Notes: a model not told the origin generated them from the sequence alone. Counted from the stretch's first letter, positions 16,914 through 64,000 are shown. The stretch is 64,000 bases of DNA from an uncultured virus (IMG/VR IMGVR_UViG_3300020178_000825) (IMGVR_UViG_3300020178_000825:1-64000), one strand, 5' to 3'. Program-made: numbers and translations.

Positions 16914-16925
16914 ACTGAGATATTA

Positions 16926-17135: not shown

Positions 17136-17163
17136 AGGTAATCTCTTTATAGTTTTATACATC

Positions 17164-17172: not shown

Positions 17173-17193
17173 TGGATAAAAAAAAAGTAAGGA

Positions 17194-18160: not shown

Positions 18161-18218
18161 AATTAACCTTTATTTGTTTGTATATATAAGTATATCAAAA
18201 TAAAAAAGTTGTAAAACG

Positions 18219-18245
18219 AAAAAAGGTTCTCACTAAGAGAACCTT
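18219..18245 (-). terminator. rho-independent terminator after the tail tube gene
   Basis: Perfect 9-bp stem AAGGTTCTC-(5 nt loop)-GAGAACCTT running into a T tract on the minus strand. Confidence 0.85.
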
Positions 18246-18276
18246 CTTCAATTTATAGATAGTAGTGGATAATATC

Positions 18277-18765: not shown

Positions 18766-18816
18766 TTTTTTATTTCCCTTTTATACTAATAAATATTAGT
18801 TATTCATTTTTTTGTT

Positions 18817-21126: not shown

Positions 21127-21175
21127 AATTTTATTTCTCCAATAAGTTTATTTTGATAAATAAATCAAATACACA

Positions 21176-21184
21176 TATAAATAT
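21176..21184 (-). promoter_or_regulatory. ATATTTATA motif (putative late promoter) upstream of sheath
   Basis: Exact motif about 50 nt upstream of the ATG at 21126. Confidence 0.55.
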
Positions 21185-21277
21185 AACGAAAATCTCCAAA
21201 AGATAAATTTCATTTCTATTAACCACATACAATCAAACTTAAATTGTACATAGGTTATTATGAATTTAAGATTTTAA

Positions 21278-21799
21278 CTACACATTCACAATAACATCAC
21301 CAAAAACTTCTTTTAGTTCTGTTTTTAATAATGGATATGCAAAATCATAAATAGATGAGCCGGTTAATGCATTAGTTGTGATTACATCTGCTGTATATTC
21401 TTCACTACCACTAACATTTACAGTATCGTATGTCCAAGAAGATTGAGTAATCATATTCTCAGGGTCTTCTGGGTCTGGAACCATTTGTTCTACAGATGAA
21501 GATACAGTTTCTACTCTTAAAAATTCTCTACTTCTAACTTGAGATTCTGTTAAATGAAAACTATACACCTCTTTTACCTCATAACTCTTTGCTTCCCATT
21601 CTTCAACTAACATAGCAGGTGAATGTTCATCAAATAAATCTCTAGAAGCACTAGAAGCAGCTCCTTCATTTAGATATAATGTGGGATATACTCTTAATGT
21701 ACCATTTGATTTTCTAAATTCAAAAGATTCTATTCTTACATATCCTTCAGAAGTGATACCTCTACTTGTACCTATTTGTTTTTGTATTTCTAAAGCCAT
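21278..21799 (-). CDS. hypothetical protein (173 aa), fibre-associated
   Basis: Clean acidic ORF downstream of the fibre gene, with its own ATATTTATA motif. Confidence 0.75.
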   Translation of the reverse strand: MALEIQKQIGTSRGITSEGYVRIESFEFRKSNGTLRVYPTLYLNEGAASSASRDLFDEHSPAMLVEEWEAKSYEVKEVYSFHLTESQVRSREFLRVETVSSSVEQMVPDPEDPENMITQSSWTYDTVNVSGSEEYTADVITTNALTGSSIYDFAYPLLKTELKEVFGDVIVNV

Positions 21800-21821
21800 T
21801 TTGTTTTTTTTACTTTATGTT

Positions 21822-21830
21822 TATAAATAT
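21822..21830 (-). promoter_or_regulatory. ATATTTATA motif (putative late promoter)
   Basis: Exact motif 22 nt upstream of the ATG at 21799. Confidence 0.55.
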
Positions 21831-21849
21831 AACTATATTAGTAAAAAGA

Positions 21850-44500: not shown

Positions 44501-47500
44501 TAAATCCTTCATTTACATCTAAACTTCCACTAATTTTAACTGAACCCGTAAATTCAGAACCACTTTCAGTAGATTCTACAAAGAATCCTCTTTCAGGTGT
44601 TACTGAAGCAGAAACGCTACCACTAGCAATTCTAAATGCTTCTTCAGTAAGTGCCGATTGTGGAATGTTGAATAAACCACTACCATCACCAGTTATAACA
44701 CCATCTACATCTAATGAATTAGTTACAAATACTGAACCTGTAAATTCTTGTCTATTATCTAAACTATTTCCAAATGTATTTGAACCAGAAGATGTAATTA
44801 CAACCGAATCTATAAATGTTACATTTAACTCTCTAGCATTTATAGCCCCACTTACATATAAATCATTATCAATTGTTAAATCACCTTGAATCGAACCAGA
44901 AGTATTAACTACAAATCCTAAATTAGGTGATACAGACGCAGTTACAGAACCACTAGCAATTCTTGGAGAATCTTCTGCTAATGCCGATTGAGGAATATTA
45001 AATAATCCAGCACCATCACCTTTAAAAATACCATCGTTTATTTGAACATTTCCACTTACGAAAAGTGAACCAGTGAATAATGAACCACTATCTAAAGATT
45101 CTACAACAAATCCTCTATCTGGGTCAGTTGATGCGGTTACCGAACCACTACCGATTCTAGGTGCATCCCCACTAAGAGATGTAAATGGAATATTATTAAG
45201 TTGTGAACCATCACCAGCAAATGAACCAGAAAATGAACCAGTAAATTCTTCTGAAGTGATAATCGTAGCATCTAACTCATCTACATTAATCTTACTAGCA
45301 GTTAAATCATTTGAAATTACTACAGAACCAGTTATATCAATACTACTTGTAAATTGAGAACCACTACCAGCATTTACGATAAAGAACTCTCCACTTTCAA
45401 CCGATGCCGTAGCAGAACCACTAGCAATTACAGGAGATTCTTCAGCTTGTACATTTGTTAATTGAGAACCATCACCAATGAAAAATTTAGAAGTAATTGA
45501 TTCTGAAACAAATACAGAACCACTAAATTCTGATTTGGTAGTTCCAGTAGAATCTTCTACTCTAAATATGTTACTACCAGATTCAGGCGGTACTACTATC
45601 ACCGATGCAGTAATAGAACCACTTGTAATATTATTTGTAAGTAATGCATCTTCAGTTAATGCTGAACGAGGAATATCAAATAAATCTCTACCACTACCAC
45701 TAAATGCGCCACTAACTTCATTACCAATGAATCTATCAGCGGTTACATCATCAGTAACTTCAACATCTTTAGCAAATATCGTAGTTGATGCAGAAATACT
45801 ACTATCAAATGTTGCTGGTACATTTACTTGGAATCCTAAGTTAGGTGAAATCGATGCGGTTGCCGAACCAGATGCTATTCTTGGTGAATCACCAGAAAGT
45901 TGTGCGGCCGGAATATTAAATAAACCACTACCATCACCCTGAAATAGTGATGCGGTTACTGATTCTGAAATAAATAATGACCCACTAATTCTAGTAGTAT
46001 CACCCAATTCTATAAGTGATACTTCAGCTTGACCTGGAGTTTGTTCTGCTTTTACAAATAATCCACCAGTGATTGTTGTGAATGTATTTACATTCATTCC
46101 ACCATTTGGATTAAGAGAAGCAGTAATTGAACCAGTTGCTATTAAATTTGATAATAATGCATCTGGTGCTAATGCTGAACGAGGAATATCAAATAAACCT
46201 TCACCACTACCACTAAACATAGATGCGGATAAACTACCACTTACTCCAAGAGAACCACTTAATTCAGTTCGTATTTCTTTTCTAGTTGTATCTTCTACTC
46301 TAAAAAGACTTGGTTCATCTGAACCTGATTTGTATAATAATGAAGCCGATACTGAACCACTAGCAATTCTAAATGCTTCTTCTGATAATGCGTTTAATGG
46401 TATATTGAATAATCTACTACCATCACCTTCAAATGATGAACTTATAATTCCACTTGCGGTTACATTACCAACAATCTCAGTTTCACCAATTAATGTTTGT
46501 TTATCTTCAGCTGAATCACCAAATATATTTGAACCAGATGAATAAACAATCGATGATGAAATAAAGTTTGTATATAATTCGTTTGTTGTAATTCTACCCG
46601 TTACAACCAAATCACTATCTATTCTAACATCTTGCTCAAATAATGAAGATGTATTAACTACAAATCCTAAGTTTGGAGAAACGGATGCAGTTGCTGAACC
46701 ACTTGCAATTCTAAATGCTTCTTCAGTTAATGCTGATTGTGGAATATCAAATAATCCAGCACCACTACCACTAAACATAGATGCTGATACTGGGAATTCA
46801 AATTTTGAGAATGTATTAACTACAAATCCTTCATTTGGTGAAATTGATGCAGTTGCAGAACCACTACTAATTTTATTAATATCAAATGCTAAAGCTGATT
46901 CCGGTATATCAGTTAACCCAGCACCACTACCACTAAATACCGATGCAGAAACTCCACTTTCTACAAACACCGAAGAACTAAATTCTGCTCTATTAGTACC
47001 TTCTAATCTAAATCCAAATACTGGGGATACTGATGCCGTTACCGAACCACTAGCTATAAATGATGAAAGTAATGCATCTTCTGTTAGTGCACTTCTTGGT
47101 ATATCAAATAAATCCCTACCACTACCACTAAATACTGAACCTGAAGATAGTTTTACATCACCGAAGAATGTTGAACCACTTTCTATCGAAGTTACTACAA
47201 ATCCATCTTCTGGGTTTGTAGATGCGGTAATTGAACCACTAAATATTAATGAAGTATCTAAATCTACAATAGCAGCTACTGGAATATCAAATAGTTTAGC
47301 ACCACTACCACTATATGATGAACCGCTTTCTACTCTAACCTCTCCAAAGAATGTTGAACCACTAGCGATTGAAGTTACAACAAAACCATCTTCAGCATCA
47401 ACGGATGCGGTTACTGAACCAGAAGTAATTTTACTTATTTCAAAAGAAAGTGCTGATTCTGGAATATCGAATAAGTTAGCACCACTACCACTAAACGAAC

Positions 47501-49313: not shown

Positions 49314-49328
49314 TTACAACTCTTATTT

Positions 49329-50192
49329 TTATTCATTAGCGGTTTCTAATATAGATAGAACCACACTTAAATCAGTAGAACCAGAAAAAACCAGTCCATA
49401 ATCTTCCTCCAATACTAATTTACCAGCCACAACAGGGGAAAATGAATCACCTGTTGGTATCGGAAAATTAGTTACAAACTCTACTGGAGTTTGTGTTTCC
49501 GTTACTGGGTCTTGAATTGCTCCAGATATTACAGTAAATAGTTCTCTTATAATATTTGATGAACCACTTTCAGCTATTAAATTAGTATTAATTGATTGTG
49601 TTACGCTTGATTGATATAATCTATCTACATCATCAGAACCCGTTACTGATTCATTTAGAATAATTTTCTGAGCAAGTGTATTTGTGTACGATATTGCATT
49701 TATTGATGCTGTAATTTGATTTGATGGAATCAATAATACACCATCTTTATCATAAAAAGATAGTGCCGCTTTATTGGTTCTAATTGTACTACCACTATTA
49801 ATTATATCAAATGTTACAGCGTTTACAGCGGTTTCAACATATTCTTCATATCTTGATGATGAAAATCCAAATGGAATTTCTTGAAGATTATTATTGAATC
49901 TAGTGTAAGCAGCTACTTCTTTTTTAAGGAAATTTTTATTTTCAACTATTAATGCTGATGATGAGAAGAAACTTCCTGAATTTGCAATTCCAGCAACTTG
50001 TGGAACTGGTAAAATTCTGTTTGGTGCTAACTTAATTACAACTTCTTGGGTTTGTGTACCATTGTTTGTAATTTGAGCCGATAATATAATAGTAGAAACA
50101 CCAGTAGGTGCTTTATACACCTGGTCTTCCTCACCAGTCAAAGTTGCAACTACTGATTTAAATGCGTTTAATGGAATTAATTCATCTGCCAT
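49329..50192 (-). CDS. adaptor-like protein (287 aa): MANTFK-type fold with an inserted helical repeat
   Basis: N- and C-termini align by eye to 33462..33794; the middle resembles the repeat of the upstream giant protein. Confidence 0.75.
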   Translation of the reverse strand: MADELIPLNAFKSVVATLTGEEDQVYKAPTGVSTIILSAQITNNGTQTQEVVIKLAPNRILPVPQVAGIANSGSFFSSSALIVENKNFLKKEVAAYTRFNNNLQEIPFGFSSSRYEEYVETAVNAVTFDIINSGSTIRTNKAALSFYDKDGVLLIPSNQITASINAISYTNTLAQKIILNESVTGSDDVDRLYQSSVTQSINTNLIAESGSSNIIRELFTVISGAIQDPVTETQTPVEFVTNFPIPTGDSFSPVVAGKLVLEEDYGLVFSGSTDLSVVLSILETANE

Positions 50193-50234: not shown

Positions 50235-53200
50235 TTACCCTTCCAGAGCGAGAGAGAATGGTGTAACTAATGAGAATAATGAACGAGAGAATGTTCTACC
50301 CTGTAATGTACCAGTTGCCTGATTAATTACAAGTCCCGTACCAATCTTAAAGTCACCAAGTTCGTTACCCGCAGTGAAGAATACTCTACCTCCACCCAAT
50401 TCAACAATTTCTTTATCTGGGTCTGGAACTCCATTACCACCTTGGTTAGGAGGTAATGCTTTATAAGTTACACCAGAACCAGCATATGAGAAATCATGTC
50501 CAGTAGTAATAATTAGTGAACCAAATAATTCCAATGGTGCATTTCTAGCAACTTTTTGGAATAAAGTTCTTAAATATCTATTTGTTTCTGCCGTTTCTTT
50601 CTTTTGTTCGTTTATCACTACACTAGCATCACCATAAACACCATTGTAGTAAGATTTTGCAGCTTCAATACTTCTCTCATTACCACCATATAGTAAATCA
50701 GTTGAAATAGCATCTAAAATAAATCCAGTATCTCTATAACATTTTTCTTCGTTATATTCAAAACCTGGGAATGCTGCTTCAGTATATGAAATTGCCGATG
50801 ATTGTAAATATTTCTTCGCTGCTCTTAATTCATTGTAACCATTTCTTCTATTCAAACTAGCGAATGTTAATTGGTCTTGCTTAATAACTTTTTCAGCCAT
50901 TCCTTTTGCGAAATCAATACCATCGATTGTTTGGGGTTTTTGTTCAGTAATTGCTACTGAAGGAATATAGTAATAGAATGTAGCCGCTTGGATACTTCTT
51001 TCGTTACCACCATATACCAAATCAGTTCTAACCGCATCTATGATGTAACCCAAATCTCTACTACAACTTACATCATTGTAAGCGAACTCACTCCAAGATG
51101 AAGATAAAAATGCGATAGTTTCTTTTTGAATAAATGTTTTGTTATTCACCAATAAATCAGCCGCAACTAATACCGATGCTGATGGTTCGTTCCATTCAAT
51201 ATTTTGAATCACATTTTGAGCCAATCCACTAGCATATTTGATACCAGTAGTTGTTGGGTCTAATTGAGATACCACCGAAGGTACACCTCTTTCAGTTGCC
51301 GATGATGGGTATTTGAAGTAGTAATTACCAGCGATAACACTTCTTTCGTTACCACCATACAATAAATCGGTTGCTGCTGCATCTACTATGAATCCAGTAT
51401 CTCTTCTACATTTAGCTTCATCATAGTAAACACCACTCCAAGAAGAAGATACATACTGAATTGTTTCTTCAGCGATAAATGGTTTGTTCTTTCTCAACAA
51501 GTCAAACGATGCGGATACTTCGGTAGATGCTGTTACGAATTGGATATTTTGAACCAATGCTTCAGAGATTCTACCAGCGTATTTCACACCATCAGTTGTT
51601 TGATTTGCTTGAACTGAAGTTGCTTCCGATGGATATAAGTAGTAGTATTCACCAGCGGTTCTACTTCTTTCATTTCCACCATATAAGAAATCAGTTGCAA
51701 CTGCATCCACAATATATCCAACATCTCTAGCACACTTATCTTTGTTGTACTCAAATGTACTCCAACTAGCAGTTAAGTAAGCCAATGATTCTGATTGAAT
51801 GAATGTTCTATTGTTTAGTAACGATTCGTTACCAGCAATTCTTTCAGCTGATGGAGATTGGAATATTTGGTTTACAATTACTTTTTCCATCATATCACCC
51901 GCGTACTCAATTCCAGTTACCGTTGGGTCTAATTGAGCGTTAGTTGCTGATGATGGATATTTGTAATAGTAATTTCCAGCTATTACACTTCTCTCAGTTC
52001 CACCATAAAGAATATCAGTTGAAATAGCATCTAAGATGTATCCAATATCTCTCTTACAAGTTTCTTGGTTGTAATCAAACTCACTCCAAGAAGATGATAA
52101 GTAAGCGATTGATTCACTTTGAATGAATCCTTTGTTATCTCTTAATAAATCATAAGATTGTTGAGAAGCTGATGATGGTGATACTAATTGAATATTACTA
52201 GCAACTTTCTCAGCCAATCTACCAGCGTATCTGATTCCATCCAATGTTTGGTCTAATTGAGAACCAGTTGCTTGTGATGGATATAAGTAGTAGAAGTTTC
52301 CTGCTTTGTTAGTTCTTTCGTTACCACCATATACAATATCAGTTCTTACAGCATCAATAATGTATCCAACATCTCTCTTACAAGTTACTTCATCATAATC
52401 AAAAGTTGACCAAGATGAAGATAAGTAAGCGATTGTTTCAGTCTGAATGAATGGTGTGTTCAATCTCAACAATTCAGATGTTACAACTCTTTCAGAAGAT
52501 GCAGTTACAAATTCAATATTTTGAATAAGTTTTTGTGCCAATCTACTTGCGTAATTGATACCATCTAAAGTTTGATTTAATTGAGCTCCTTGCGCTTGGG
52601 ATGGGTATTCATAGTAGAATTTACCATTTACAATAGATGCGGAATTAGCGTTCCAAATTAAATCTTCAGCTGCTCCACTAATAATCAACTTAATATCTCT
52701 AGCACATTTAGCTTCATCATAAGATGCCGTACTCCAAGAAGATGATAAGTAAGCTATTGATTCCGATTGAATGAATGAAATATTACTTCTTAGGATTTGG
52801 TAAGCTGCGATTGTACTTTCATCAGTTGATGGAGTTGTATAAGTTCCAAACAATGGAAGTGAACCAGTTCCATTAGAAATAATATCAGTTACAATCTCAA
52901 CCGATTCTGAAATAAATGAAATATTTTCTAATGAACCACTAGCTGATGAAGAAATGTATTGAGTAACATTTGTTACTTTAATGTTCTCATTTAAGTTTTC
53001 AACTAATGTTGGGATAACACTCACACCATCTTCAACAATACCACTAACTGATGCGAATGAAGAACTAATCTTAGTTAATTCAACTTCACCAGCAGAAGAT
53101 GCTGAAATGTATTGAGGTGTTGATGTTACTTTAATATTATTGTTAGTATTCAAACTAGCTGATGGAATTGGTAAAGTATTCTTATCAATCAATTCAGTTA

Positions 53201-56200
53201 CCAACTTAGATGCGTAAATTACTGCATCAGTAGTTTCACCCAATTGTGCGGTTGTTGCTTGTGATGGGAATTTATAGTAGTACTGTCCAGCTACGATTGA
53301 GCGTTGGTTACCACCCCATCTTAAATCAGTTGCTACCGCATCTACGATGAATCCAGCATCTCTACTACAACTAGCTTCGTTGTATTCTAAGTTTGGATAT
53401 TTAGCGTTTACAAATGCAACAGTTTCCGCTTGGATAAATTCTCTATTTTCTCTAATTGAATCGTAAACGAATTCAACTTCGTTTGAAGCAGTTACAAACT
53501 GAGAACCACTTAGTAACTCATTTGCCAATGATTTAGCGTAATTGATACCAGTTACAGTTGGGTCTTTTTGTTGGTCTACATTTGGTACACCACCCACAAT
53601 CGCTGCTGATGGATATCTATAATAGTAATCTCCAGCAATAACACTTCTTTCATTACCACCATATTTCAAATCAGTTGCTACTGCATCTATAATATACCCA
53701 ACATCTCTCTTACACTTAGATTCGGAGTAATAGAAATCACTCCAAGAAGAAGATAAGTAAGCGATAGTTTCGTTTTGGATAAATTCTTTGTTTTCAACCA
53801 ATAAGTTGTAAGATGCCGAAACTGATGATGATGCGGTTACGAATGTTCTATTTCTTACAATGTGTTGAGTTAGAGTACTAGCATAATTGATACCATCTAA
53901 TGTTTGTTGTAATTGAGAACCAGTTGCGGCAGATGGATATTCTAAGTAGAACTTACCATTTACCACCGATGCGGAATTTGAGTTCCAAATTAAATCTTCC
54001 GCTGCACCACTCACAATCAATGCAACATCTCTACTACAACTTGCTTCGTTGTATGAGAAATCACTCCAAGAAGATGAAATGTAAGCGATTGATTCAGATA
54101 CAATAAATGGTAGGTTATTCTTAATTAACTGATAAGCCAATTTAGCTTTTGGAGAATCAGATGGAGTTGTGTACTCAATAATCGTAGGTGCCGAACCACT
54201 TCCATTCTCAATAATATCAGTTACAATAGCGATTGATGAAGATACAATCTTAGATTGTAGTTTATCAGCTGATGATGCTGAAATATATTGTGGAGTATCC
54301 GTTACCTTAATTAGGTTATCAACATCGGTATTATTTCTTACGATAGTTGGTTTTTGAGATAATCCATTTTCAACAATGTCCACCACAATTCCAAATCTAT
54401 TATCAACAATTGAAAGTTCAGCCGTTGATGCAGATACAGAAGATGAATATTGAGTTGTGTTTGTAAACTTACGTTTGTTGTAAGTATTATCAACAAAATC
54501 AGCAATAGATGATGTTGTATTTTCAATAATATCATTAATTAATGAGAATGAACTACTTACGATTGCTAATTCAGTATCAGTTGTATAAGTTCCAGTTGGA
54601 GTTACAACATATCCAGATTCACCTGCTATTGTTGGGTCACCCAAATCACCATCTTGGAATATACTTCTAATAGTTGCCAATGATGGTTTACTAATTGTAG
54701 GTGAAATATATGTGTTATGGAATGCATAACCTAATGGGTTATTTGCTAAAATTCCAGCTTGTGTTCTCATTGAATCATCCCACTCAGGAGAAAGACTTCC
54801 ATTTTCCCATAAATCGGTATATTCAAACATTGAGAAGTTTAACAAATATAGATATTCTTTAGCAGCTACCTCAAATGCATCAGAATCAGTTTTCCAACTA
54901 TTACCACCATATCCCGATGAATCCCACAATCCAGCATCATATGCCTCTTCCATTGCAAGATATAAATCACCAGTCTGCCAATCAGATGCCAAATAAGAAT
55001 ATAGTTTTATATCATCTGCAGGTAAACCATGCATATGTAATGTGTGGAATATGTGTTCAATTACTTCTTGTGCATCTATATCACCAGAACCAGATATATC
55101 ACCTGTTGAGTTTAGATACCAAACCATATCGTTTTGTACATGAGTATCAAACAAGTTTGTTAAGTTCCAATATAAAATACCAGCATCATCAAGGAAGTTT
55201 GGAGTATAATCACTTCCAGCTCCTCTTGCTACTCTTTGTATAGTTGGTAATCCAGCGTGGTAAGTTCCACTATCACCACTTAATGTTTTAATTAAATTTC
55301 TTTGGAATGTTTCATTTATTCCCGAACCACTTGGGTCAGTAAATAATTCAAACATACGAGCAACTTTCTCAGTAAATGCATCAGGTACAGCAGTTTGTCC
55401 ACCAACATCACCGGCTACAACAATTCTTACACCATTGACTGTAACTTCTTTTTTGAAGAAATCACTACCATCACCAGTTAAAGATATAATTGAACCATTG
55501 TTGTATTCTGAATCTAATGTAGGTCCAGCTATTTGAGTATAAGAACCCGTTGTTAATTGTTGTGGAGTATCTAACTCAGAAGTTTGGAAATGCTTAGCGA
55601 TAGTAAATGGAATATCATCAGAACCTAATCTAATAATATCGTTAATCATATCAATACTTGCCGATACAATTCCAATTTGTGTTCCTTTGTTTTGAGATGC
55701 AACCTCAGTTAATCTTTGTGCGTACTCAATACCAGCAACAGTTTCTTCTAATTGATATCCAGTTGCTTGTGATGGATATTTGTAATAGTAATTTCCTGAT
55801 TTAACGCTTCTTTCATTACCACCATATAGTAAGTCAGTTGCTACACCATCAATGATGTAACCCACATCTCTACTACACTTACTTTCATTGTATTGGTGAG
55901 TTGGGAATGAGGATGATAAGTATGCAATTACCTTAGATTGGATAGTTGCTTTTTCATTTACAATTGAGTTATAAGAATCAACAATAGTAGAATCTGCCGA
56001 TGAGAATGTTACATTCTGAATCAATTTCTGAGCTAAATTACTAGCGTAGAAAATACCATCTAATGTTTGGTCTAATTGTGAGCTTGTTGCCTGAGATGGG
56101 TATTCTAAATAGAACTTACCATTTACAATTGAAGATGAATCAGTATTCCAAATTAAATCTTCAGCTGCCCCACTTACAATCAATCCAACATCTCTTCTAC

Positions 56201-59200
56201 ATTTTGATTCATCATATACAAATCCACTCCAAGAAGATGATAAATAAGCTATTGTTTCTTCCTGAATGAAATCAATGTTATTTCTTAGGATTTGGTAAGC
56301 CGCAATTGTTGATTCATCGGTAGATGAAGTTGTGTAATTTGTAGGTACATATCCACCAACACCATTTGTTATAATATCGGTTACAATATCAATAGAAGAT
56401 GAAATAAAGTTTACATTTTCTAAACTACCACTAGCAGATGAAGAAATGTATTGTTCAATATTTCCAACTTTGATATTGTTGTTTGTGTTTGATACAATCG
56501 TTGGAATATTTCCAACTCCATTTTGAATCACATCAATCACAATTGCGAATGATGAACTAATATCAGATACGGATTGAGTAGCTGAGTTAGTTGTTTGAAT
56601 TGCGTTTGTTACTTTAGTTAATGATTCAATACCCTTATGTTCTGTTGGTAAGTTATTTAATCCACCTAAAATTACATTGTTAATAATTTCAAATGAAGAA
56701 CTAATTTCAGTTAAATTACTACCACTAATAGCCATTGAACCACTATATTGTGGAACACCATCAACCTTAATATGATTTTCACTATTAAGGATAATTCTTG
56801 GTCTTTCAAACTCTTTGTTTAGAATCACATCCTTAGTAAGAGCTTTAGCGTATCTAATACCCTCAATAGTTTCTCTTAATTGGAAAGTGGTTGCCTGTGA
56901 TGGATATCTGTAATAGTAATCACCAGCAATAATACTTCTTTCATTGCCTCCCCATAATAAATCAGTTGCTACCGCATCTAAAATAAATCCAACATCTCTC
57001 TTACACTTAACTCTATTGTAAGTAAAGTATGGATATAAGTTATCAACAAACTCAATAACTTCGGATTGTATAAATAATTTATTATTTCTAATTCTATTGT
57101 AAGCTTCTAATGTGTTACTATCGGGATTTACTAATAGTGTGTTTTGAATAATTTTTTCTGATAATCCAGCTGCATGTTTTACACCTGTAATTGTTTGGTC
57201 TAATTGAGTAGTTGTTGCCTCAGATGGATATCTATAATAGAACTCACCAGCCACTACACTTCTTTCATTACCACCATAAACAATATCAGTAGCGATAGCA
57301 TCTAGGATATACCCAACATCTCTCTTACACTTAGATTCATTATATTCAAATGTACTCCAAGAAGAACTTATAAAGTGGATAACTTCATTTTGAATCAATC
57401 CTTTGTTATCCATTAATAAATCTTTAGTTGCTCTTCTTTCTAATGATGAAGTTACTAAAGTTATATTATTAATTAATTTATTTGTCAATCGTTGTGCGTA
57501 AGTGATTCCATCAACAGTTTGTGTTAATTGTGAACCAGTTGCATCTGATGGGTATAGGTAATAGAATTCTCCAGCATTTACTGCTCTTTCATTACCACCA
57601 TATACGAAGTCGGTTACAACCGCATCTATAATGTATCCAGTATCTCTTCTACATTTAGCTTCATTGTATTCAAATGTACTCCAAGAAGAAGAAAGGAATT
57701 GAATAGTTTCTTCTTGAATTAAACTTTTATTTTCAGAGATTAATTCTGCTACTCCTAAAGTTTGTAATTCAGGTAATTCTAAAACTTGATTTTGAAGTAT
57801 TTTATTAGATATTCTTCTAGCGTAATTAATCGCATCAACAGTTTGATTCAATTGTGAACCAGTTGCTGCGGATGGATTACTGTAATAGAAAGATGCCGCT
57901 TGTACAGAACGTTCATTACCACCATAAAGAATATCAGTTGCTGCAGCATCTACAATATGTCCAATATCTCTTCTACATAATATATCTGAGTAAACAAAAT
58001 CACTCCAAGATGATGATATGTATTCAATTGTTTCATTTTGAATTAATACCTTATTATCTAACAATAATTGATGTGATGCAGATGCTTCATTTGAAGCAGT
58101 TACAAATTGAATATTTTGAATTAATTTTTGAGTAAGTTTACTAGCATATTCAATACCATCCAATGTTTGATTTAATTGAGATGTTTCAGCTTGAGATGGA
58201 TATTCTAAATAGAACCTACCATTTACAACTGATGATGATACAGTACCCCAAATTAAATCTTCAGCCGCACCAGATATTATTAAGCCAATATCTCTACCAC
58301 ATTTTACTTCATCATAAGAAGCAGTACTCCAAGACGAAGATAGGTATGCTAAACTTTCTGATTGAATAAATGGAATATTATTTCTAATAATTTGATATGC
58401 AGCTATCGTTGATTCATCGGTAGATACTCCACTACCAGTATCATATAAACTAGCGGTGTACGAACCAGATGAACCTAATTGTACTATGTTATAAACTATT
58501 GATACCGATGAAGATATAAAATTAACATTTTCTAATGTACCACTTACCGAAGATGAAATATATTGAGGTACATCAGTTACTTTTATACTAGCTGATGTAT
58601 TTGATATTTCGGTTGGTAAAGAACTTGTTCCATTTTGTAAAACATCAATAACAATTGCATATGATGAACTTACATTATTTAGTTCATATTCAGATGGTGT
58701 TATTGAAGATGTAATTTGTGATGTATTTGTTACTTTTATTGAACCAGATGTATTTTCAACAATAGTTGGTAAATCATCTACACCATTTTTCAATATTTCT
58801 ATTGTAGTTGCAAATGATGAACTAATTTCATGTGATTCATCAACCGAAGCACTGAATGAAGATGAATATTGAGATATATTTGATATCTTAATATTATCAA
58901 CATTGTTAGTAGTTATTTCAACAAATCCTTTAGATGGAACTTCAATATATCTTTGAGTATCCGAAATTGGTAAATTATCAACTACATTGATAATACCACT
59001 AGCAGATACATTATTACCATTTACATAATATAATCTATCCGGTGCTTCTAGTGGAACGATAAATGTTAAAGTTCCAAAGTTTACACCATTATTAGTTACA
59101 CCTTCATTATAAAGAGCTTCTTTATTTGGCTTTCTAGCAGTTTTAATGTAGAATGGATTTAAATCGTATTTTAGAGCATTTACTGAGAAGGTGTACATTT

Positions 59201-62200
59201 CACCCCTTTTCAATGTTAAAGTTGGGTCTTTAATACCATCTGAGAATGAACCTGTATTTTCTTCGGTATTAAAATATCCACCTGCTCTTACACCATCAAA
59301 CTCATCCAATTGAGCTCTATTGATAATATAATAATCACCAGTTTCTGGAGTAACAACTTCGTAGTAAGTTGAGGTATCAAAAGAACCACTCAAACTTAAA
59401 CTACCAGAAGTACCATATTTAATGATATCAATAATATCTGAGAATGAAGATGATACTTTTAATGATTCACTAACTGATGAAGTTATAGAACCTGTAATTT
59501 GTGTATCACTACCAAACTTAATACCCGAATCTGTGTTTTCAGTCAATTCAAAAGTTGGTATGGAAGTAGTAATTACAGTTTTTACTAAACCATCACCATA
59601 TGAATCTTTAGGAATTCCAATAGTAGAAATTGGGTCTCCTATTTGAGATTCAGGCACTGGAGCTGAACCTGTTCCGATTGTTTCTTCAGTTACAATAGAA
59701 CTACCACTTTCAATAATTTTAATTACAGTATCGAATGAATTCTCTACTGAATTAGCTCCTCTTAAATCTAATTTAATTAAATCTCTAGCGAAGTTGATAC
59801 CATCTACCGTTTCACTTAATTGTGAGAATGTAGCTTGTGATGGGAATCTATAATAGAATGCTCCAGCTTGAACACTTCTACCATTTCCACCATATACTAA
59901 ATCAGTTACAACTGCATCTATGATGAACCCAACATCTCTAAAACACTTATCGTTGTTATAGTTTAGATTTGGGTAAGTATCATTGATGTAATCAATTGTT
60001 TGTTGTTGTACATTTGATTTGTTATCAATGATTGAGTTTTTAATTGTTATCTTAGTGCTATCCGCTGATGTGAATGTTTCACCCAATACAATCTTCTCAG
60101 AAATACCACCCACATATTTGATACCATCAACCGTTGGGTCTTTTTGTTGAGTTGTTGAAGGAACACCACCTACAATTGCTGCAGATGGATAACGATAGTA
60201 GAAATTAGATGCGATTCTACTTCTCTCATTACCACCATAAACTACATCAGTTACAGCAGCATCTATAATAAATCCTATATCTCTCTTACAAGTTGTTTGG
60301 TTGTATGAGAACTCACTCCAAGAAGAAGATAGGTATGCTATTGTTTCATCTTGTACAAATTGTTTGTTATTAAGAAGAACATTCTTAGCATCTAATTTTG
60401 CTTGAGATGGGAATGAGAATGAACTACCAGTTACAACTGCTTCAGTAATTCTACCAGCATATCTCAATCCATCTAATGTTGGTACTAATTGTGTTGTAGG
60501 TGTTGGAGATGCACTACCACTTAAAATTGCTGCCGATGGATATAGGTAATAGAAGTTACCAGCAATAGCACTTCTCTCATTACCACCATAGTAGATATCA
60601 GTTTTAACTGCATCTAAAATATATCCAGCATCTCTTCTACAAGTTGTTTCGTTATAATCAAAAGTACTCCAAGAAGAAGATAGATATTGAATCATTTCTT
60701 CTTTAATGAAATCTTCATTTTCAGTAATTGCGTTCCAAGCTCCCCTTCTTTCAACAGATGCGGTTACGAACTCAATATTCTGAATAAGTTTTTGTGCTAC
60801 TTCACTTGCGAAAAATACACCATCTAATGTTTGATTTAATTGTGCACCTTGTGCTTGTGAAGGATATTCATAGTAGAACTTACCATTTACTATTGAAGAT
60901 GATACAGTTCCCCAAATTAAATCTTCTGCGGCGCCTGAGATAATTAAACCAACATCTCTTCTACATTTACTTTCATCATAAGATGCGGTACTCCAAGAAG
61001 AACTCAAATATGCAATTGTTTCATCTTTGATGAAATCAATATTGTTTCTTAGGATTTGGTATGCCGCAATTGCATTTGATGATGAAAGTGGTTGTGATGG
61101 ATATTCACTAGCAGTATATGAGCCAGTTCCATTTGCGATAATTGATGTTACATAAGAAATAGAAGATGAAATGAATGATACATCCTCTAAACTTCCACTA
61201 AACGAAGAAGATATGTATTGAACACTATCGTTAAAGAACTTAATATTTTCGTTTGTATTTGATACAATTGTAGGAATCACACCTACACCATTTTCTACAA
61301 TATTTGTTATAGTAGCAAATGATGAACTAACTTTAGTTGCCTCAGTTAAAGAACCACTATAATCCGTATTCTGAAGTTGATTTGTTACTTTGATTAACCC
61401 ATCTATACTAGCTGTTAATGGTGGTAATGAATCAACACCATTTTGTACTATATTTGCCACAATAGCAATTGATTGAGAAACCAAAGTTGCTTCGGTAGAT
61501 GTTGATGATAAACTACTACTAATGTATTGTGGAGTATCAGTTACTTTAATTGTACCTTCCCAAGAAGATGTTGGTTGAGGTATAACAGATTCACCACCAG
61601 CTATGATTGAGGTAACAATATCAAACCCATCACTTACATTTTGTATGTTAACGGATTCAGTTACCGATGATGTTATTGGAAGTACACTACTTACATTTAT
61701 TGGTGAAGATATACTCCAATTAAAACTTCCAGTATTTTCAGCAATTGAAGCTAATACCGAATCATTACCAAATCTAATGATATCTTCAACGATTCCAATT
61801 GAACCACTAATATACTTAGATTCAAACTCAGTACCACTAATCGATGATGTTATGTATTGCACATCACCAACCTTAATTCGTTTTTCAATATTTCGTTTAG
61901 CGGTTGGTATTTCAATCAAATTAGATTGAGCAACTTCCAATGCAAATCCTTTAGAATATCTGATACCCTCTAAGGTTTCTTCTAATTGAGTTGTGTTTGC
62001 GATTGATGGATATAGGTAGTAGTATAGACCCGATAATTGAGAGCGTTCCACCCCACCATATCTTAAATCGGTAATCACACCATCCAAAATATATCCAGTA
62101 TCTCTTCTACATTTTGCTTCGTTATATGAGAAGTTTGGATATGTTGTATTAATATATGTAATCGTTTCGTCTTGAATTAGAGAACGATTTTGTAATAGTG

Positions 62201-63998
62201 TATCAGCGATAGTAAGTGTAGATGCCGATTGAGTTACGAATGTTTCGTTTTTAGCTAACTTCTGAGCTATCCTCTTAGCGTACTTAATACCATCAATTGT
62301 TTGATTTAATTGTCCACCAACAGTACTATTATTTACAGTTGCCTGGGATGGGTATTTGTAATAGAAATTACCAGCGATTACACTTCTCTCATTACCACCA
62401 TATTTGATATCAGTTGCTACCGCATCTATGATGTATCCCAAATCTCTTACACACTTAGCTTCATTGTACTCAAATGTACTCCAAGAAGAACTTACATATG
62501 CAATAGATTCGGATTGTATAAATCGTTTATTTTCAAACAATAAGCTGTATGCATTATCAGCCTCAGCAGTTGTTTCTACAAAAGTTGTATCTGATAATAT
62601 ATTATCAACCATACCAGCAACATATTTGATTGCCGTTAGGGTTGGGTCTTTTTGAGTTGTTGTTGCATCCGATGGATAGAGGTAATAGAAGTTACCATTT
62701 CTCACCGATTCTTCATTACCACCATATAATAAATCATGCGCAGCACCACTTACGATATAACCAACATCTCTCTTACAAGTAGTTTGGTTGTATTCAAACT
62801 CACTCCAAGACGAACTCAAATAAGCAATCGTTTCTTCTTGAATAAATGGAATGTTTTCAATTAGTAATGCGTAAGCATTTTGATAATCAATCGTTGGATT
62901 TTCGTTTGAACTACTCTGAATAATTGCTGGTGCTGAACCTGTTCCATTATCCAAAATATTATATACAATAGATAACGAAGAACTTACTGCTTCTCTAACA
63001 TTTAATGATGAAGATAAATCAGTAATATATTGAGTTGTATCGGTTACCTTAAACGATTGAGATGTATTTAATTTTATTTCTGGAATAAAATCTAAACCAT
63101 TTTCTATGATGGAAATAATAGTATCAAATCGTTCACCAATTGTATCTTCCGTAATATCAGATACCGGTGATGATTTGTATTGCTCGACATCACTTATTTT
63201 AATTGAAGAACTAACATTATCTACATAAATGTATGATGATGTAGCTGCATTACCTCTTTCAATTATATCTAAAACAATATCATAATTAGTATTGATTGTA
63301 CTTAAATCATCTTCAGATGCCGTAGTTGATGAAGTTATTTGATTATCACCACTAACATTCCATACTGAACCCGAATTATATCCTCTATCCGATGATACGG
63401 CTAAAATAGGAATTTTATTTTCAACTCCTCTTTCAATCAAATTAGATATTAATCTATAATCAGATACAACTGTTTTTGCATCTTTATCACTTGCTTGTGC
63501 ACCTGTATTGAATTTTTGTAATTCATTAGTTACTTTAATACCATCTTCAGTATTTGTAACTAAATCAGGAATTTCACCCAATCCCCTTTCAATTGTATCA
63601 ACAATAATTGAGTAATTATCTTGTACATTTAAAAATGCTTCAGTATTACCACCACTACCAGTGATGAAACGAGAACCAGACGCATACATACCAAAATCAC
63701 CAAATGAAGTGTTGGAGTTAAGTAATACTGCTTGCCCACCATCAATTACTTTTACTGAATATGCAGAGAAGTTTGTGAAGAACGATACTAACTGAATAAA
63801 TCCTCTACCTACAACTTGACAACCAACACCGTTTGGTGCAACCTGTGTATATGCATCAAGTACCATTGAAGCAAGAGGTGAATCAGGATGAATTCTATTA
63901 CCATCTACATTCAATCCACCACCACCAGCAGGAATATCCTCATATGCTTCTAAGAATGAGTTTTCCTGATTGGAAATCATTGAACAGTTCTGAACATA
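50235..63998 (-). CDS. giant virion structural protein (>4581 aa, 5' end outside window) with 24 CxRD helical repeats
   Basis: The frame stays open beyond the ATG at 63980 (…YVQNCSMIS…). Beta-helix-like segments at both ends (SMVLDAYTQ..QLVSFFT; GHDFSYAGSG..ALP..GGRVFFT..GDFKIG) flank the repeat array. Confidence 0.88.
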   Translation of the reverse strand, partial: YVQNCSMISNQENSFLEAYEDIPAGGGGLNVDGNRIHPDSPLASMVLDAYTQVAPNGVGCQVVGRGFIQLVSFFTNFSAYSVKVIDGGQAVLLNSNTSFGDFGMYASGSRFITGSGGNTEAFLNVQDNYSIIVDTIERGLGEIPDLVTNTEDGIKVTNELQKFNTGAQASDKDAKTVVSDYRLISNLIERGVENKIPILAVSSDRGYNSGSVWNVSGDNQITSSTTASEDDLSTINTNYDIVLDIIERGNAATSSYIYVDNVSSSIKISDVEQYKSSPVSDITEDTIGERFDTIISIIENGLDFIPEIKLNTSQSFKVTDTTQYITDLSSSLNVREAVSSSLSIVYNILDNGTGSAPAIIQSSSNENPTIDYQNAYALLIENIPFIQEETIAYLSSSWSEFEYNQTTCKRDVGYIVSGAAHDLLYGGNEESVRNGNFYYLYPSDATTTQKDPTLTAIKYVAGMVDNILSDTTFVETTAEADNAYSLLFENKRFIQSESIAYVSSSWSTFEYNEAKCVRDLGYIIDAVATDIKYGGNERSVIAGNFYYKYPSQATVNNSTVGGQLNQTIDGIKYAKRIAQKLAKNETFVTQSASTLTIADTLLQNRSLIQDETITYINTTYPNFSYNEAKCRRDTGYILDGVITDLRYGGVERSQLSGLYYYLYPSIANTTQLEETLEGIRYSKGFALEVAQSNLIEIPTAKRNIEKRIKVGDVQYITSSISGTEFESKYISGSIGIVEDIIRFGNDSVLASIAENTGSFNWSISSPINVSSVLPITSSVTESVNIQNVSDGFDIVTSIIAGGESVIPQPTSSWEGTIKVTDTPQYISSSLSSTSTEATLVSQSIAIVANIVQNGVDSLPPLTASIDGLIKVTNQLQNTDYSGSLTEATKVSSSFATITNIVENGVGVIPTIVSNTNENIKFFNDSVQYISSSFSGSLEDVSFISSSISYVTSIIANGTGSYTASEYPSQPLSSSNAIAAYQILRNNIDFIKDETIAYLSSSWSTASYDESKCRRDVGLIISGAAEDLIWGTVSSSIVNGKFYYEYPSQAQGAQLNQTLDGVFFASEVAQKLIQNIEFVTASVERRGAWNAITENEDFIKEEMIQYLSSSWSTFDYNETTCRRDAGYILDAVKTDIYYGGNERSAIAGNFYYLYPSAAILSGSASPTPTTQLVPTLDGLRYAGRITEAVVTGSSFSFPSQAKLDAKNVLLNNKQFVQDETIAYLSSSWSEFSYNQTTCKRDIGFIIDAAVTDVVYGGNERSRIASNFYYRYPSAAIVGGVPSTTQQKDPTVDGIKYVGGISEKIVLGETFTSADSTKITIKNSIIDNKSNVQQQTIDYINDTYPNLNYNNDKCFRDVGFIIDAVVTDLVYGGNGRSVQAGAFYYRFPSQATFSQLSETVDGINFARDLIKLDLRGANSVENSFDTVIKIIESGSSIVTEETIGTGSAPVPESQIGDPISTIGIPKDSYGDGLVKTVITTSIPTFELTENTDSGIKFGSDTQITGSITSSVSESLKVSSSFSDIIDIIKYGTSGSLSLSGSFDTSTYYEVVTPETGDYYIINRAQLDEFDGVRAGGYFNTEENTGSFSDGIKDPTLTLKRGEMYTFSVNALKYDLNPFYIKTARKPNKEALYNEGVTNNGVNFGTLTFIVPLEAPDRLYYVNGNNVSASGIINVVDNLPISDTQRYIEVPSKGFVEITTNNVDNIKISNISQYSSSFSASVDESHEISSSFATTIEILKNGVDDLPTIVENTSGSIKVTNTSQITSSITPSEYELNNVSSSYAIVIDVLQNGTSSLPTEISNTSASIKVTDVPQYISSSVSGTLENVNFISSSVSIVYNIVQLGSSGSYTASLYDTGSGVSTDESTIAAYQIIRNNIPFIQSESLAYLSSSWSTASYDEVKCGRDIGLIISGAAEDLIWGTVSSSVVNGRFYLEYPSQAETSQLNQTLDGIEYASKLTQKLIQNIQFVTASNEASASHQLLLDNKVLIQNETIEYISSSWSDFVYSDILCRRDIGHIVDAAATDILYGGNERSVQAASFYYSNPSAATGSQLNQTVDAINYARRISNKILQNQVLELPELQTLGVAELISENKSLIQEETIQFLSSSWSTFEYNEAKCRRDTGYIIDAVVTDFVYGGNERAVNAGEFYYLYPSDATGSQLTQTVDGITYAQRLTNKLINNITLVTSSLERRATKDLLMDNKGLIQNEVIHFISSSWSTFEYNESKCKRDVGYILDAIATDIVYGGNERSVVAGEFYYRYPSEATTTQLDQTITGVKHAAGLSEKIIQNTLLVNPDSNTLEAYNRIRNNKLFIQSEVIEFVDNLYPYFTYNRVKCKRDVGFILDAVATDLLWGGNERSIIAGDYYYRYPSQATTFQLRETIEGIRYAKALTKDVILNKEFERPRIILNSENHIKVDGVPQYSGSMAISGSNLTEISSSFEIINNVILGGLNNLPTEHKGIESLTKVTNAIQTTNSATQSVSDISSSFAIVIDVIQNGVGNIPTIVSNTNNNIKVGNIEQYISSSASGSLENVNFISSSIDIVTDIITNGVGGYVPTNYTTSSTDESTIAAYQILRNNIDFIQEETIAYLSSSWSGFVYDESKCRRDVGLIVSGAAEDLIWNTDSSSIVNGKFYLEYPSQATSSQLDQTLDGIFYASNLAQKLIQNVTFSSADSTIVDSYNSIVNEKATIQSKVIAYLSSSFPTHQYNESKCSRDVGYIIDGVATDLLYGGNERSVKSGNYYYKYPSQATGYQLEETVAGIEYAQRLTEVASQNKGTQIGIVSASIDMINDIIRLGSDDIPFTIAKHFQTSELDTPQQLTTGSYTQIAGPTLDSEYNNGSIISLTGDGSDFFKKEVTVNGVRIVVAGDVGGQTAVPDAFTEKVARMFELFTDPSGSGINETFQRNLIKTLSGDSGTYHAGLPTIQRVARGAGSDYTPNFLDDAGILYWNLTNLFDTHVQNDMVWYLNSTGDISGSGDIDAQEVIEHIFHTLHMHGLPADDIKLYSYLASDWQTGDLYLAMEEAYDAGLWDSSGYGGNSWKTDSDAFEVAAKEYLYLLNFSMFEYTDLWENGSLSPEWDDSMRTQAGILANNPLGYAFHNTYISPTISKPSLATIRSIFQDGDLGDPTIAGESGYVVTPTGTYTTDTELAIVSSSFSLINDIIENTTSSIADFVDNTYNKRKFTNTTQYSSSVSASTAELSIVDNRFGIVVDIVENGLSQKPTIVRNNTDVDNLIKVTDTPQYISASSADKLQSKIVSSSIAIVTDIIENGSGSAPTIIEYTTPSDSPKAKLAYQLIKNNLPFIVSESIAYISSSWSDFSYNEASCSRDVALIVSGAAEDLIWNSNSASVVNGKFYLEYPSAATGSQLQQTLDGINYASTLTQHIVRNRTFVTASSSVSASYNLLVENKEFIQNETIAYLSSSWSDFYYSESKCKRDVGYIIDAVATDLKYGGNERSVIAGDYYYRYPSAAIVGGVPNVDQQKDPTVTGINYAKSLANELLSGSQFVTASNEVEFVYDSIRENREFIQAETVAFVNAKYPNLEYNEASCSRDAGFIVDAVATDLRWGGNQRSIVAGQYYYKFPSQATTAQLGETTDAVIYASKLVTELIDKNTLPIPSASLNTNNNIKVTSTPQYISASSAGEVELTKISSSFASVSGIVEDGVSVIPTLVENLNENIKVTNVTQYISSSASGSLENISFISESVEIVTDIISNGTGSLPLFGTYTTPSTDESTIAAYQILRSNISFIQSESIAYLSSSWSTASYDEAKCARDIKLIISGAAEDLIWNANSASIVNGKFYYEYPSQAQGAQLNQTLDGINYASRLAQKLIQNIEFVTASSERVVTSELLRLNTPFIQTETIAYLSSSWSTFDYDEVTCKRDVGYIIDAVRTDIVYGGNERTNKAGNFYYLYPSQATGSQLDQTLDGIRYAGRLAEKVASNIQLVSPSSASQQSYDLLRDNKGFIQSESIAYLSSSWSEFDYNQETCKRDIGYILDAISTDILYGGTERSVIAGNYYYKYPSSATNAQLDPTVTGIEYAGDMMEKVIVNQIFQSPSAERIAGNESLLNNRTFIQSESLAYLTASWSTFEYNKDKCARDVGYIVDAVATDFLYGGNERSRTAGEYYYLYPSEATSVQANQTTDGVKYAGRISEALVQNIQFVTASTEVSASFDLLRKNKPFIAEETIQYVSSSWSGVYYDEAKCRRDTGFIVDAAATDLLYGGNERSVIAGNYYFKYPSSATERGVPSVVSQLDPTTTGIKYASGLAQNVIQNIEWNEPSASVLVAADLLVNNKTFIQKETIAFLSSSWSEFAYNDVSCSRDLGYIIDAVRTDLVYGGNERSIQAATFYYYIPSVAITEQKPQTIDGIDFAKGMAEKVIKQDQLTFASLNRRNGYNELRAAKKYLQSSAISYTEAAFPGFEYNEEKCYRDTGFILDAISTDLLYGGNERSIEAAKSYYNGVYGDASVVINEQKKETAETNRYLRTLFQKVARNAPLELFGSLIITTGHDFSYAGSGVTYKALPPNQGGNGVPDPDKEIVELGGGRVFFTAGNELGDFKIGTGLVINQATGTLQGRTFSRSLFSLVTPFSLALEG
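50550..62880 (-). repeat. array of 24 ~100-aa repeats in six clusters
   Basis: Consensus LxxNKxFIQxETIAYLSSSWSxFxYNExKCxRDVGYIIDAVATDLxYGGNERSxxAGxxYYxYPS; counted by hand. Confidence 0.92.
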
Positions 63999-64000
63999 AG

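Follow-up and report, generated by a model that had tools for sequence, protein, structure and literature searches.

A probable array of 24 phycobiliprotein-type domains in a predicted tail-fibre protein of an uncultured T4-like myophage

IMGVR_UViG_3300020178_000825 is an uncultured virus sequence from IMG/VR, and a stretch of 64,000 nucleotides from it (positions 1-64000; the window refers to this whole stretch) carries part of a giant gene that is read on the minus strand. The phage is an uncultured T4-like myophage of ~253 kb, and the product of the giant gene is predicted from its sequence matches and gene position to be a tail-fibre-type protein located in the virion. The protein features 24 repeats with a C-x-R-D motif, and the repeat cores very probably form an array of homologous phycobiliprotein-type domains that belong to the phycobiliprotein/bilin-binding-globin lineage. 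A complete genome record of the same phage encodes a heme oxygenase and a bilin reductase. The best explanation overall, which has about an even chance of being right, is that the cores form nested domains with separate helix units and take up a bilin made by the phage.

The repeat array and its likeness to phycobiliproteins

The window is part of a 126,056-bp contig, in which the giant open reading frame (ORF) spans 50235-64721 on the minus strand and encodes 4828 amino acids with 26 cysteines. Its start lies beyond the window and the first 240 residues are outside it. The window part (50235..64000, minus strand, defined by ORF lists, PHROG matches and the position in the structural module) was translated from 63980 to 50235 and gives 4581 amino acids with 25 cysteines. 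It contains 24 C-x-R-D motifs, compared with ~0.05 expected by chance for its composition (C 0.55%, R 3.12%, D 5.92%), and 24 of the 25 cysteines are inside the motifs, the odd one being residue 54. These counts agree with a preliminary description of the DNA, which had reported 24 repeats that all keep C-x-R-D in a protein where cysteine is otherwise rare. The same description took the residues near the motif to be free to vary, which is contradicted by the alignment of the 24 repeats: ten columns are invariant (Y44, C49, R51, D52, I56, D63, Y79, S84, Q90 and T94) and the mean column identity is 54%, so conservation extends to the whole unit, beyond the motif. The core is ~108 amino acids in size and helical. 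The motifs are arranged in runs of 3, 4, 5, 2, 3 and 7 repeats that are split by five longer gaps, and the spacing is 108 amino acids in 13 of the 23 gaps and 114-117 amino acids in the remaining short gaps. Repeat 21, the source of the KCARDVGY string quoted in the preliminary description, has its Cys motif at 51723-51734; the GG that was said to fall at positions 19-20 from the Cys is found there in this repeat and in two CpcA sequences from Acaryochloris marina (plasmid pREB3). Two other roles for the cysteine were set aside, a Cys-Gln thioester on the grounds of column 90, where 59% of the cores have Q and 36% have E, and an intradomain disulfide on the grounds that each domain has a single Cys.

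AlphaFold2, run without templates on the core alone, predicted a five-helix bundle with a predicted local distance difference test score (pLDDT) of 82.5 and a predicted template modelling score (pTM) of 0.74. A Foldseek search of this model against the PDB gave phycobiliprotein or phycobilisome entries at all of the listed ranks 1-48, with probabilities of up to 1.00, query-normalised TM-scores of up to 0.78 and root-mean-square deviations of 2.7-3.2 over 111-118 columns. VIA-align, which compared the model with 48,161 chains, placed phycobiliprotein, ApcE or photocobilin chains at ranks 1-10 with Z of 11.6-9.3, aligning 106-113 residues (110 for the best) to chain residues ~22-142; the ApcE matches are 4xxi_A (Z 10.8) and 7eyd (Z 9.9). 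These are followed by colicins and sensor globins, including the heme-binding sensor globins 4uiq (Z 8.6) and 4zva (Z 8.1). For a model of the full domain, which consists of a helix unit plus a core, phycobiliproteins are still the best matches (Z 9.3), covering only model residues ~49-160.

Profile comparisons determined how the cores relate to phycobiliproteins in sequence. A profile of the 24 repeats of this protein found two PDB matches at E < 10, both phycocyanin alpha and both aligned at Cys84. A broadened profile, A6, was built from 10 of these cores and 14 cores from five cultured cyanomyophages, and it found 147 matches at E < 10 among 177,635 PDB sequences, the best being CpcA with E 4e-6; the best 60 of the 147 are all phycobiliproteins or phycobiliprotein-type proteins. 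Positions 5-62 of A6 align with residues 37-104, which comprise two helices, a loop and helix E, and KC-RD-GY is superposed. With four natural CpcA and CpcB sequences from A. marina plasmid pREB3 as the comparison set, hhalign scored A6 at 95.6% (P 1.1e-8) over 64 columns. The core Cys is in register with phycobiliprotein Cys84 in both the PDB and the hhalign alignments, and the cyanophage cores carry a longer B-E loop, as in phycobiliproteins.

Several results weigh against a relation to bilin-binding phycobiliproteins. The Foldseek E-values are 0.13 or worse, and a Z of 11.6 is under the caution line of ~13 that VIA-align gives for helical bundles. The core match covers helices ~A to G, and the X-Y hairpin and helix H are absent. 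The helix unit of the full-domain model is outside every phycobiliprotein alignment; with those alignments confined to model residues ~49-160 it has no phycobiliprotein counterpart, and in the model it might occupy the pocket. The curated family PF00502 matched neither the whole protein (E <= 0.1), nor any of the 24 single repeats (E <= 10), nor a six-frame scan of the contig (E <= 10). In the profile of the 24 repeats the phycocyanin matches have E of 0.27-0.36, which is not significant, and hhalign against CpcA/CpcB gave 58% for these repeats and 75-87% for 377 non-redundant cores from relatives. A hidden Markov model (HMM) of the 377 sequences matched CpcA with E ~2 at a PDB-sized search space.

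Other searches were uninformative: Pfam returned sub-threshold noise only (DUF1643, Wza_C and similar) on the whole protein and single repeats, a word-indexed homologue search with one repeat as the query returned 6 short fragments and no phycobiliprotein, and a search of the ESM Atlas gave no usable match. Because the A6 and hhalign matches are significant and PF00502 is silent, the cores are best described as diverged, shortened members of the lineage that fall outside the curated family. The fold proposed in the preliminary description is thus supported by the top matches of the structure searches, the A6 match with Cys on Cys84 and the hhalign score; of the checks that it suggested, the fold comparison of repeats led to phycobiliproteins, but the family search did not.

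The C-x-R-D site and phage-encoded bilin synthesis

Searching 1.84 billion representatives with the repeat profile found at least 1328 protein clusters at E <= 0.001, and all 50 of the 50 cultured-phage records that match the giant protein are cyanomyophages. The statement in the preliminary description that similar repeats occur in marine myophage structural proteins, and may be widespread, is therefore correct. Site statistics were taken from the best 150 of the 1328 clusters and ignore relatedness. These 150 proteins have 504-6382 residues and 3-36 matched stretches each, and yielded 1581 cores, of which 1103 are near full length; 1037 of the 1103 have CxRD. Column conservation is 96% for C, 96% for R, 98% for D, 100% for D63, 98% for Y79, 91% for T94 and 95% for Q/E90, and the column table has no conserved His in the core. 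R or D is also missing in 25 of the 47 cores that lack the Cys, compared with 19 of the 1056 Cys-bearing cores, and D63 is retained in 47 of 47 Cys-less cores. The loss of Cys is paired with loss of Arg or Asp while D63 is kept, which argues that C, R and D act as one functional unit, separate from the remaining invariant positions. The available part of one report describes CXRD as the chromophore motif of phycobiliproteins and of some BBAGs (PMC10151467).

No gene for a heme oxygenase, bilin reductase, CpeT or phycobiliprotein was found in the window or in the 126-kb contig, which extends the observation in the preliminary description that the window has no bilin gene. The contig is 64% complete as rated by CheckV, whose estimates are used for all completeness values, and the bilin-synthesis genes lie outside it. 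A complete record of the same phage, G001 (252,603 bp, 100% complete), was found in viral contigs with a 331-aa query of three repeats, which it matches with 100% identity; it is 100% identical to window 1-20000, and one of its frames, of 4835 aa, carries the same 24 cores. In G001 the gene for a heme oxygenase of 171 aa (E 3.9e-13) overlaps that for a ferredoxin-dependent bilin reductase of 223 aa (PF05996, 79.7 bits, E 2.8e-23), and the pair adjoins thymidylate synthase and GroES/GroEL. The PcyA model is the one nearest to the reductase, with a score of 92.9 bits that stays under the cut-off of 206 bits, and the nearest phage homologue of the reductase is from Pelagibacter phage Mosig with 31% identity. 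The search of the rest of the genome for ho1, pcyA/pebS and lyases thus gave a heme oxygenase and a bilin reductase but no CpeT/CpeS-family match. The presence of both enzymes in the complete record strengthens the earlier idea that the repeats may bind tetrapyrroles.

The association was followed in 18 large records, namely G001 and 17 viral records of at least 95 kb (obtained with three diverse relatives, P0015, P0021 and P0028, as queries), each of which has 6-25 cores. A reductase is present in 5 of the 18, and the same 5 have a heme oxygenase directly upstream; among the records that are at least 90% complete, three of four have this cassette (G001, G040 and G049 yes; G039 no). The counts are small and ignore phylogeny. 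A psbA-type gene (PF00124) is found in 0 of the 18. The capsid proteins of the other four cassette-positive records are only 32-37% identical to that of this phage, so the association of cores and cassette recurs in distant lineages. As background, reductase matches occur in 23 of 50,697 cultured-phage records, 22 of which are cyanophages, and the reductase, used as a query against viral contigs, has four close copies there, of which three are on fragments of 40-57 kb. The three nearest capsid relatives that have no cores, the phages immuto and Mel-JY01 and the uncultured LR756508, do not have a reductase either.

The cyanomyophage homologues share the fibre gene and differ in the bilin genes. 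The cyanomyophage short tail fiber protein (T4-like gene cluster 734; S-PM2 YP_195253.1, 3779 aa; phrog_4527) belongs to the same family as the phage protein, adjoins tail-fibre genes and has the same cores with KC-x-RD; it has 4-9 cores compared with 24 here, and the hosts are bilin-making cyanobacteria. In 5 of the 5 cyanomyophages inspected, which represent five genera (S-PM2, S-RSM4, Syn1, S-CAM1 and ACG-2014h), cpeT precedes the homologous giant gene by 0.7-2 kb in the same orientation, with nothing but tRNAs, small ORFs and 2OG-Fe(II) oxygenase genes separating the two. This phage, in contrast, has no cpeT and has its own heme oxygenase and reductase. The inspected cultured-phage homologues are named short tail fiber, tail protein, virion structural protein or hypothetical protein, and none has a phycobiliprotein annotation. 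S-PM2 lacks a reductase, and its 12 core matches are spread over two giant ORFs. The second of these is a 3340-aa frame at ~55.5-57.9 kb that accounts for seven further core matches. In the S-PM2 record NC_006820 (165928-177267), 16 tRNA features are placed inside the 3779-aa giant coding sequence under the same locus tag, which is an apparent annotation error.

In the explanation proposed here, 24 copies of a phycobiliprotein-lineage domain would form the body of the fibre protein, and the CXRD of each core would be a chromophore site, with Cys for the thioether and Arg and Asp for the propionate and pyrrole contacts. During infection the phage heme oxygenase and ferredoxin-dependent bilin reductase would turn host heme into a reduced bilin, and the cores would take it up, probably in a lyase-free, autocatalytic manner like the BBAG globins; in cyanomyophages the neighbouring cpeT may assist bilin loading instead. 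A chain could carry up to 24 pigments, and candidate roles of the pigment are a stabilising cofactor, a light screen or sensor, or a bait for tetrapyrrole receptors. BBAG-1 and BBAG-3 are described as binding bilins without lyases (PMC10151467, available part), which would explain the absence of a lyase in this phage. Judged from sequence, the chances that the cores bind a bilin in vivo are evenly balanced.

The gene content also holds evidence on the other side of this balance. The cassette of G001 is ~118 kb away from the fibre gene. CpeT has no match in the 126-kb contig, in G001 or in any of the 18 large records, and Pfam searches of 184 further G001 ORFs gave no psbA, phycobiliprotein or CpeT/CpeS-family match. 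The cpeT synteny may be inherited gene order, and T-type lyases are reported to serve the Cys-153 site and not Cys-84 (PMC10452541, in the part available). The cultured cyanophage homologues, with their 4-9 cores, have a low count of 3-6 CxRD per protein. Pelagibacter phage Mosig has a heme oxygenase and reductase and no core with either profile, while G039 is 93% complete and has 20 cores and neither enzyme. Both enzymes are lacking in 13 of the 18 large records, which, besides G039, are 27-73% complete, and 37 further related fragments (3-53% complete) have no reductase. In Mosig (39650-43977) the pair stands beside a putative ferrochelatase and four 2OG-Fe(II) oxygenase genes.

The likeliest rival explanation is a pigment-free building block, in which the phycobiliprotein-type bundle was taken up only as a rigid module of a long fibre. 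Folding, the interface to the helix unit or links between chains would then be the reason why C, R and D are retained, and the cassette would have another purpose, for example iron release from heme or host physiology. It would suit the truncated fold and the extra helix that packs where no phycobiliprotein alignment reaches, and the fact that D63 (100%) and Y79 (98%) outrank Cys implies that much of the conservation is unrelated to the classical site. The lack of an encoded lyase, the cassette without the repeat in Mosig and the 20 cores without the cassette in G039 also fit, and two TonB-dependent receptors in G001, one of them heme/B12-like, are consistent with a heme or iron acquisition role for the cassette. 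This explanation has difficulty with a lone Cys that is kept in 96% of 1103 diverged virion-protein cores, which is hard to account for structurally, and with the loss of Cys being tied to that of Arg or Asp and not to that of D63. The three residues are also the published chromophore motif in the Cys84 register, and the cassette is present in three of four near-complete psbA-less repeat genomes, compared with a reductase in 23 of 50,697 cultured-phage records. A pigment-free module is accordingly considered possible and rather unlikely.

It is improbable that the site binds another ligand, such as heme, biliverdin, another host tetrapyrrole or a metal, or that the Cys reacts with the host surface as part of an adhesin unit. 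The nearest fold matches other than phycobiliproteins are the heme-binding sensor globins 4uiq and 4zva, the fibre context suggests host contact, and G039 and the cyanophage homologues have no reductase of their own. However, the core has no conserved His, which would be needed as a heme ligand, CXRD is specific to the bilin-binding members of the lineage in the available text of PMC10151467, and the site co-occurs with a bilin reductase, beyond heme oxygenase alone. That an unrelated helical bundle converged on the KCxRDxGY...GG string, with the AlphaFold shape driven by the string, would agree with the silence of PF00502, the non-significant own-repeat scores, the Foldseek E-values and the ease with which helical bundles give middling Z, but it is highly improbable given the A6 match over 58 positions with two helices and a loop, its exclusively phycobiliprotein-type best 60 of 147 matches, the hhalign score over 64 columns, the two independent structure searches that rank phycobiliproteins first and the phycobiliprotein-like B-E loop of the cyanophage cores.

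Helix units, gene layout and the phage

Bilin uptake by the cores would take place in domains that appear to be made of two pieces, since each core appears to be completed by a separate upstream helix unit. The unit is ~43 amino acids long and consists of a short strand (IKVTN), an S-rich loop, one helix and G-x-x-x-P. An HMM iterated on the giant protein found exactly 24 helix units against 24 cores, in runs of 5, 5, 5, 3, 4 and 2 that alternate with the core runs. If each unit is taken as an opening bracket and each core as a closing one, the resulting word is balanced: its depth is never negative, ends at 0 and has a maximum of 8, and a random order of 24 + 24 would be balanced by chance 1 time in 25. 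The close relatives P0008 (23/23) and P0010 (18/18) are likewise balanced. With this helix-unit HMM, which is close to this phage and finds few or no units in distant relatives, 3 of 151 proteins are balanced and 6 of 151 have equal counts, and several relatives have an alternating unit/core pattern instead.

The contiguous complete domain, h24 plus core 18 (52506..52994, minus strand), was modelled by AlphaFold2 with high confidence, the mean pLDDT being 91.8 and the pTM 0.88, compared with 82.5 and 0.74 for the core alone; helix 22-41 has a pLDDT of ~94-97. Core 19 and h23, which are bracket partners but not neighbours in the chain, scored 0.53 when predicted as a complex, against 0.00 for the best of 3 controls, with a contact agreement between runs of at least 77% and a partner pLDDT of at least 57. 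This is weak support: of 157 solved complexes 116 attained the mark for complex scores, as did 2 of 215 mismatched pairs, and at scores <= 0.60 only 18 of the 157 solved complexes passed, plus both passing mismatches. Taken together, a nested two-piece architecture is fairly likely. From the balanced order the chain would be expected to fold back on itself as a branched rod whose base holds both the N- and the C-terminal region.

The first core of each run (cores 1, 4, 8, 13, 15 and 18), which is the innermost bracket, is a distinct subtype with G-L-I-I-S-G-A-A-E-D-L-I-W and without GGNERS, and the helix unit ahead of it ends in N-G-T/S-G-S. This subtype suggests that the contiguous unit-plus-core may be the module that duplicates.

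All parts of the giant gene are on the minus strand; helix units were located with the iterated HMM and cores by motif and alignment. The protein begins with a non-repeat region (residues 1-351 of the full protein), the end of which is at 63669..64000, and helix units h1-h5 follow at 62928..63668. Cores 1-3, each with C-x-R-D and with the additional fold and profile evidence, are at 61911..62903. Helix units h6-h10 (61116..61877) precede cores 4-7 (59745..61091), and h11-h15 (58464..59765), with a non-repeat insert of ~170 amino acids between h12 and h13 (58893-59402), precede cores 8-12 (56805..58427). The next group consists of h16-h18 (56352..56771) and cores 13-14 (55677..56327). A second non-repeat insert, of ~337 amino acids (54597-55607), lies between h19 and h20 in the h19-h22 stretch (54186..55721), which is followed by cores 15-17 (53169..54164), and the array ends with h23-h24 (52854..53135) and cores 18-24 (50541..52832). 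The C-terminal non-repeat tail of 105 amino acids (50238..50552) matches phrog_3442 (residues 4488-4580) and phrog_18802 and also occurs in other giant virion proteins of phages. No Pfam family at E <= 0.01 is matched by the N-terminal region, by either insert or by the tail; in its sequence the N-terminal region has a possible resemblance to a beta-helix.

The assignment of the giant protein to the tail-fibre type follows from its matches to phrog_4527, short tail fiber protein (E 1.2e-227), phrog_5342, tail fiber protein (E 9.2e-153), and phrog_701, virion structural protein (E 2.5e-58); its gene is located between the tail sheath and tube genes and the capsid genes. A downstream ORF of 287 amino acids (49329..50192, minus strand) was identified by the repeat profile and PHROG. 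It has one weak Cys-less copy of the core (repeat profile E 8.6e-6 at G001 125565-125885, in a 289-aa frame, equivalent to window 49647-49967), its sequence lacks C-x-R-D, and it matches phrog_1276 (E 3.4e-5); it is possibly an accessory of the fibre.

The minus strand of the window has three giant ORFs. In the second (35541-49313, minus strand, 4590 aa), 16 stretches match the collagen triple helix (PF01391, E 1e-106); PHROG matches to tail fibres are numerous, and phycobiliprotein-like cores are absent. The third (21850-33450, minus strand, 3866 aa) has only weak tail-fibre PHROG matches, and a GC-richer part (GC 0.42) holds long overlapping ORFs on the other strand (30602-32791). A fourth giant ORF in the contig (91244-99652, minus strand, 2802 aa) carries a gp53-like tail-fibre domain at its C-terminus; it also matches an intein-splicing family below threshold (PF14890, 31.1 bits, the cut-off being 35.8). 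Intergenic stretches at window 4480-4562 and 9657-9708 recur with 76-92% identity at 11 other places in G001, and may be a repeated promoter or regulatory motif.

The contig encodes a DnaB-like helicase, UvsX, a gp32-like single-stranded DNA-binding protein, a baseplate hub, a tail tube and a tail sheath inside the window, and the gp23 capsid, gp20 portal, prohead protease, terminase and gp25 beyond it. In its capsid protein the phage shares 52% identity with Flavobacterium phage immuto and likewise with Microcystis phage Mel-JY01, and 39% with Rhodothermus phage RM378. G001 carries two TonB-dependent receptors (20180-22900, minus strand, and 233072-235048, plus strand), which are unusual cargo; one has a SusC/RagA-type CarboxypepD_reg N-terminus, and the other is closest to B12/heme receptor models, all below the cut-off. 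They are possibly linked to heme uptake. The SusC-like receptor gene and the capsid kinship indicate that the host is probably a Bacteroidota bacterium. An identity as a cyanophage was rejected on the basis of the missing psbA-type gene, the SusC-like receptor and a capsid that is equally near to Flavobacterium and Microcystis phages, and no sign of a phototrophic host was found. Other G001 cargo includes a PAS-domain histidine kinase followed by a response-regulator receiver protein (47997-49672, plus strand), ribosomal protein S21, GroES/GroEL, two Mom-like proteins, a DruA-like protein, a subtilase, UvdE, an acyl-CoA dehydrogenase, an IMP dehydrogenase/GMP reductase and a large block of sugar-modification genes.

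Related systems and significance

Phycobiliproteins (CpcA/B, ApcA/B and CpeA/B; PF00502) resemble the phage cores in the globin-like core with helices ~A-G, which in the phage is a predicted one, in the helix-E CXRD at the Cys84 register with a Y five residues upstream and in the GG at +19/20, and a phage domain with its helix unit is, at ~160 amino acids, about the size of a whole subunit. The phage cores differ in that they lack a PF00502 match, the X-Y hairpin and helix H, in that their N-terminal helix unit packs elsewhere, and in their family-specific invariant D63, Y79 and T94. Phycobiliproteins form alpha-beta heterodimers in the phycobilisome, whereas the phage has 24 copies in one predicted virion protein of 4828 aa.

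The bilin-binding domain of ApcE, which is among the best fold matches, is likewise a phycobiliprotein-type domain inside a very large multidomain protein. It is a single domain with a loop insertion in a cytoplasmic part of the antenna, and has no repeat array and no helix unit. ApcE attaches its bilin by itself.

BBAG-1 and BBAG-3 (Rockwell, Martin and Lagarias 2023, PMC10151467) are described in the available part of that paper as non-photosynthetic relatives of phycobiliproteins, some with CXRD, whose genomes also carry a PcyA-type reductase and a heme oxygenase. As described there, they are small cellular proteins clustered with the reductase gene, whereas the phage domains are part of a giant structural protein and are associated with the cassette at the level of the genome, at a distance of ~118 kb. 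Phage cassettes of heme oxygenase and PcyA/PcyX (PMC11480375; Mosig) have the same overlapping two-gene order; the portions of these reports that are available name no phage-encoded acceptor protein, and Mosig has no core. The benefit of phage bilin genes, including those of Prochlorococcus phages and of phages of non-phototrophs, is stated to be unclear in the available parts of PMC2984593 and PMC11480375.

In full-text literature searches, no paper on phycobiliprotein-like domains in phage structural proteins was found, and the nested two-piece-domain repeat architecture was not found described. New here are the significant profile match to the PDB, the joint loss of C, R and D, the cassette, which occurs both in a complete genome of this phage and in distant lineages that lack psbA, and the synteny with cpeT.

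The analysis extends the phycobiliprotein lineage into virus structural proteins, with meaning for a family of at least 1328 protein clusters, and a protein with up to 24 intact CXRD sites is a concrete candidate acceptor for phage-made bilins. We tentatively suggest, as a view that falls somewhat short of an even chance, that the bilin genes of marine phages (heme oxygenase, PcyA/PcyX/PebS and cpeT) would at least partly serve to pigment the phage's own particle; here this would be a branched chain of 24 split domains, each with covalent bilin made by the phage, giving a coloured and possibly light-responsive or receptor-baiting fibre in a phage of a non-photosynthetic, Bacteroidota host. If true, it would be the first phycobiliprotein-type pigment protein used outside the cell and outside photosynthesis.

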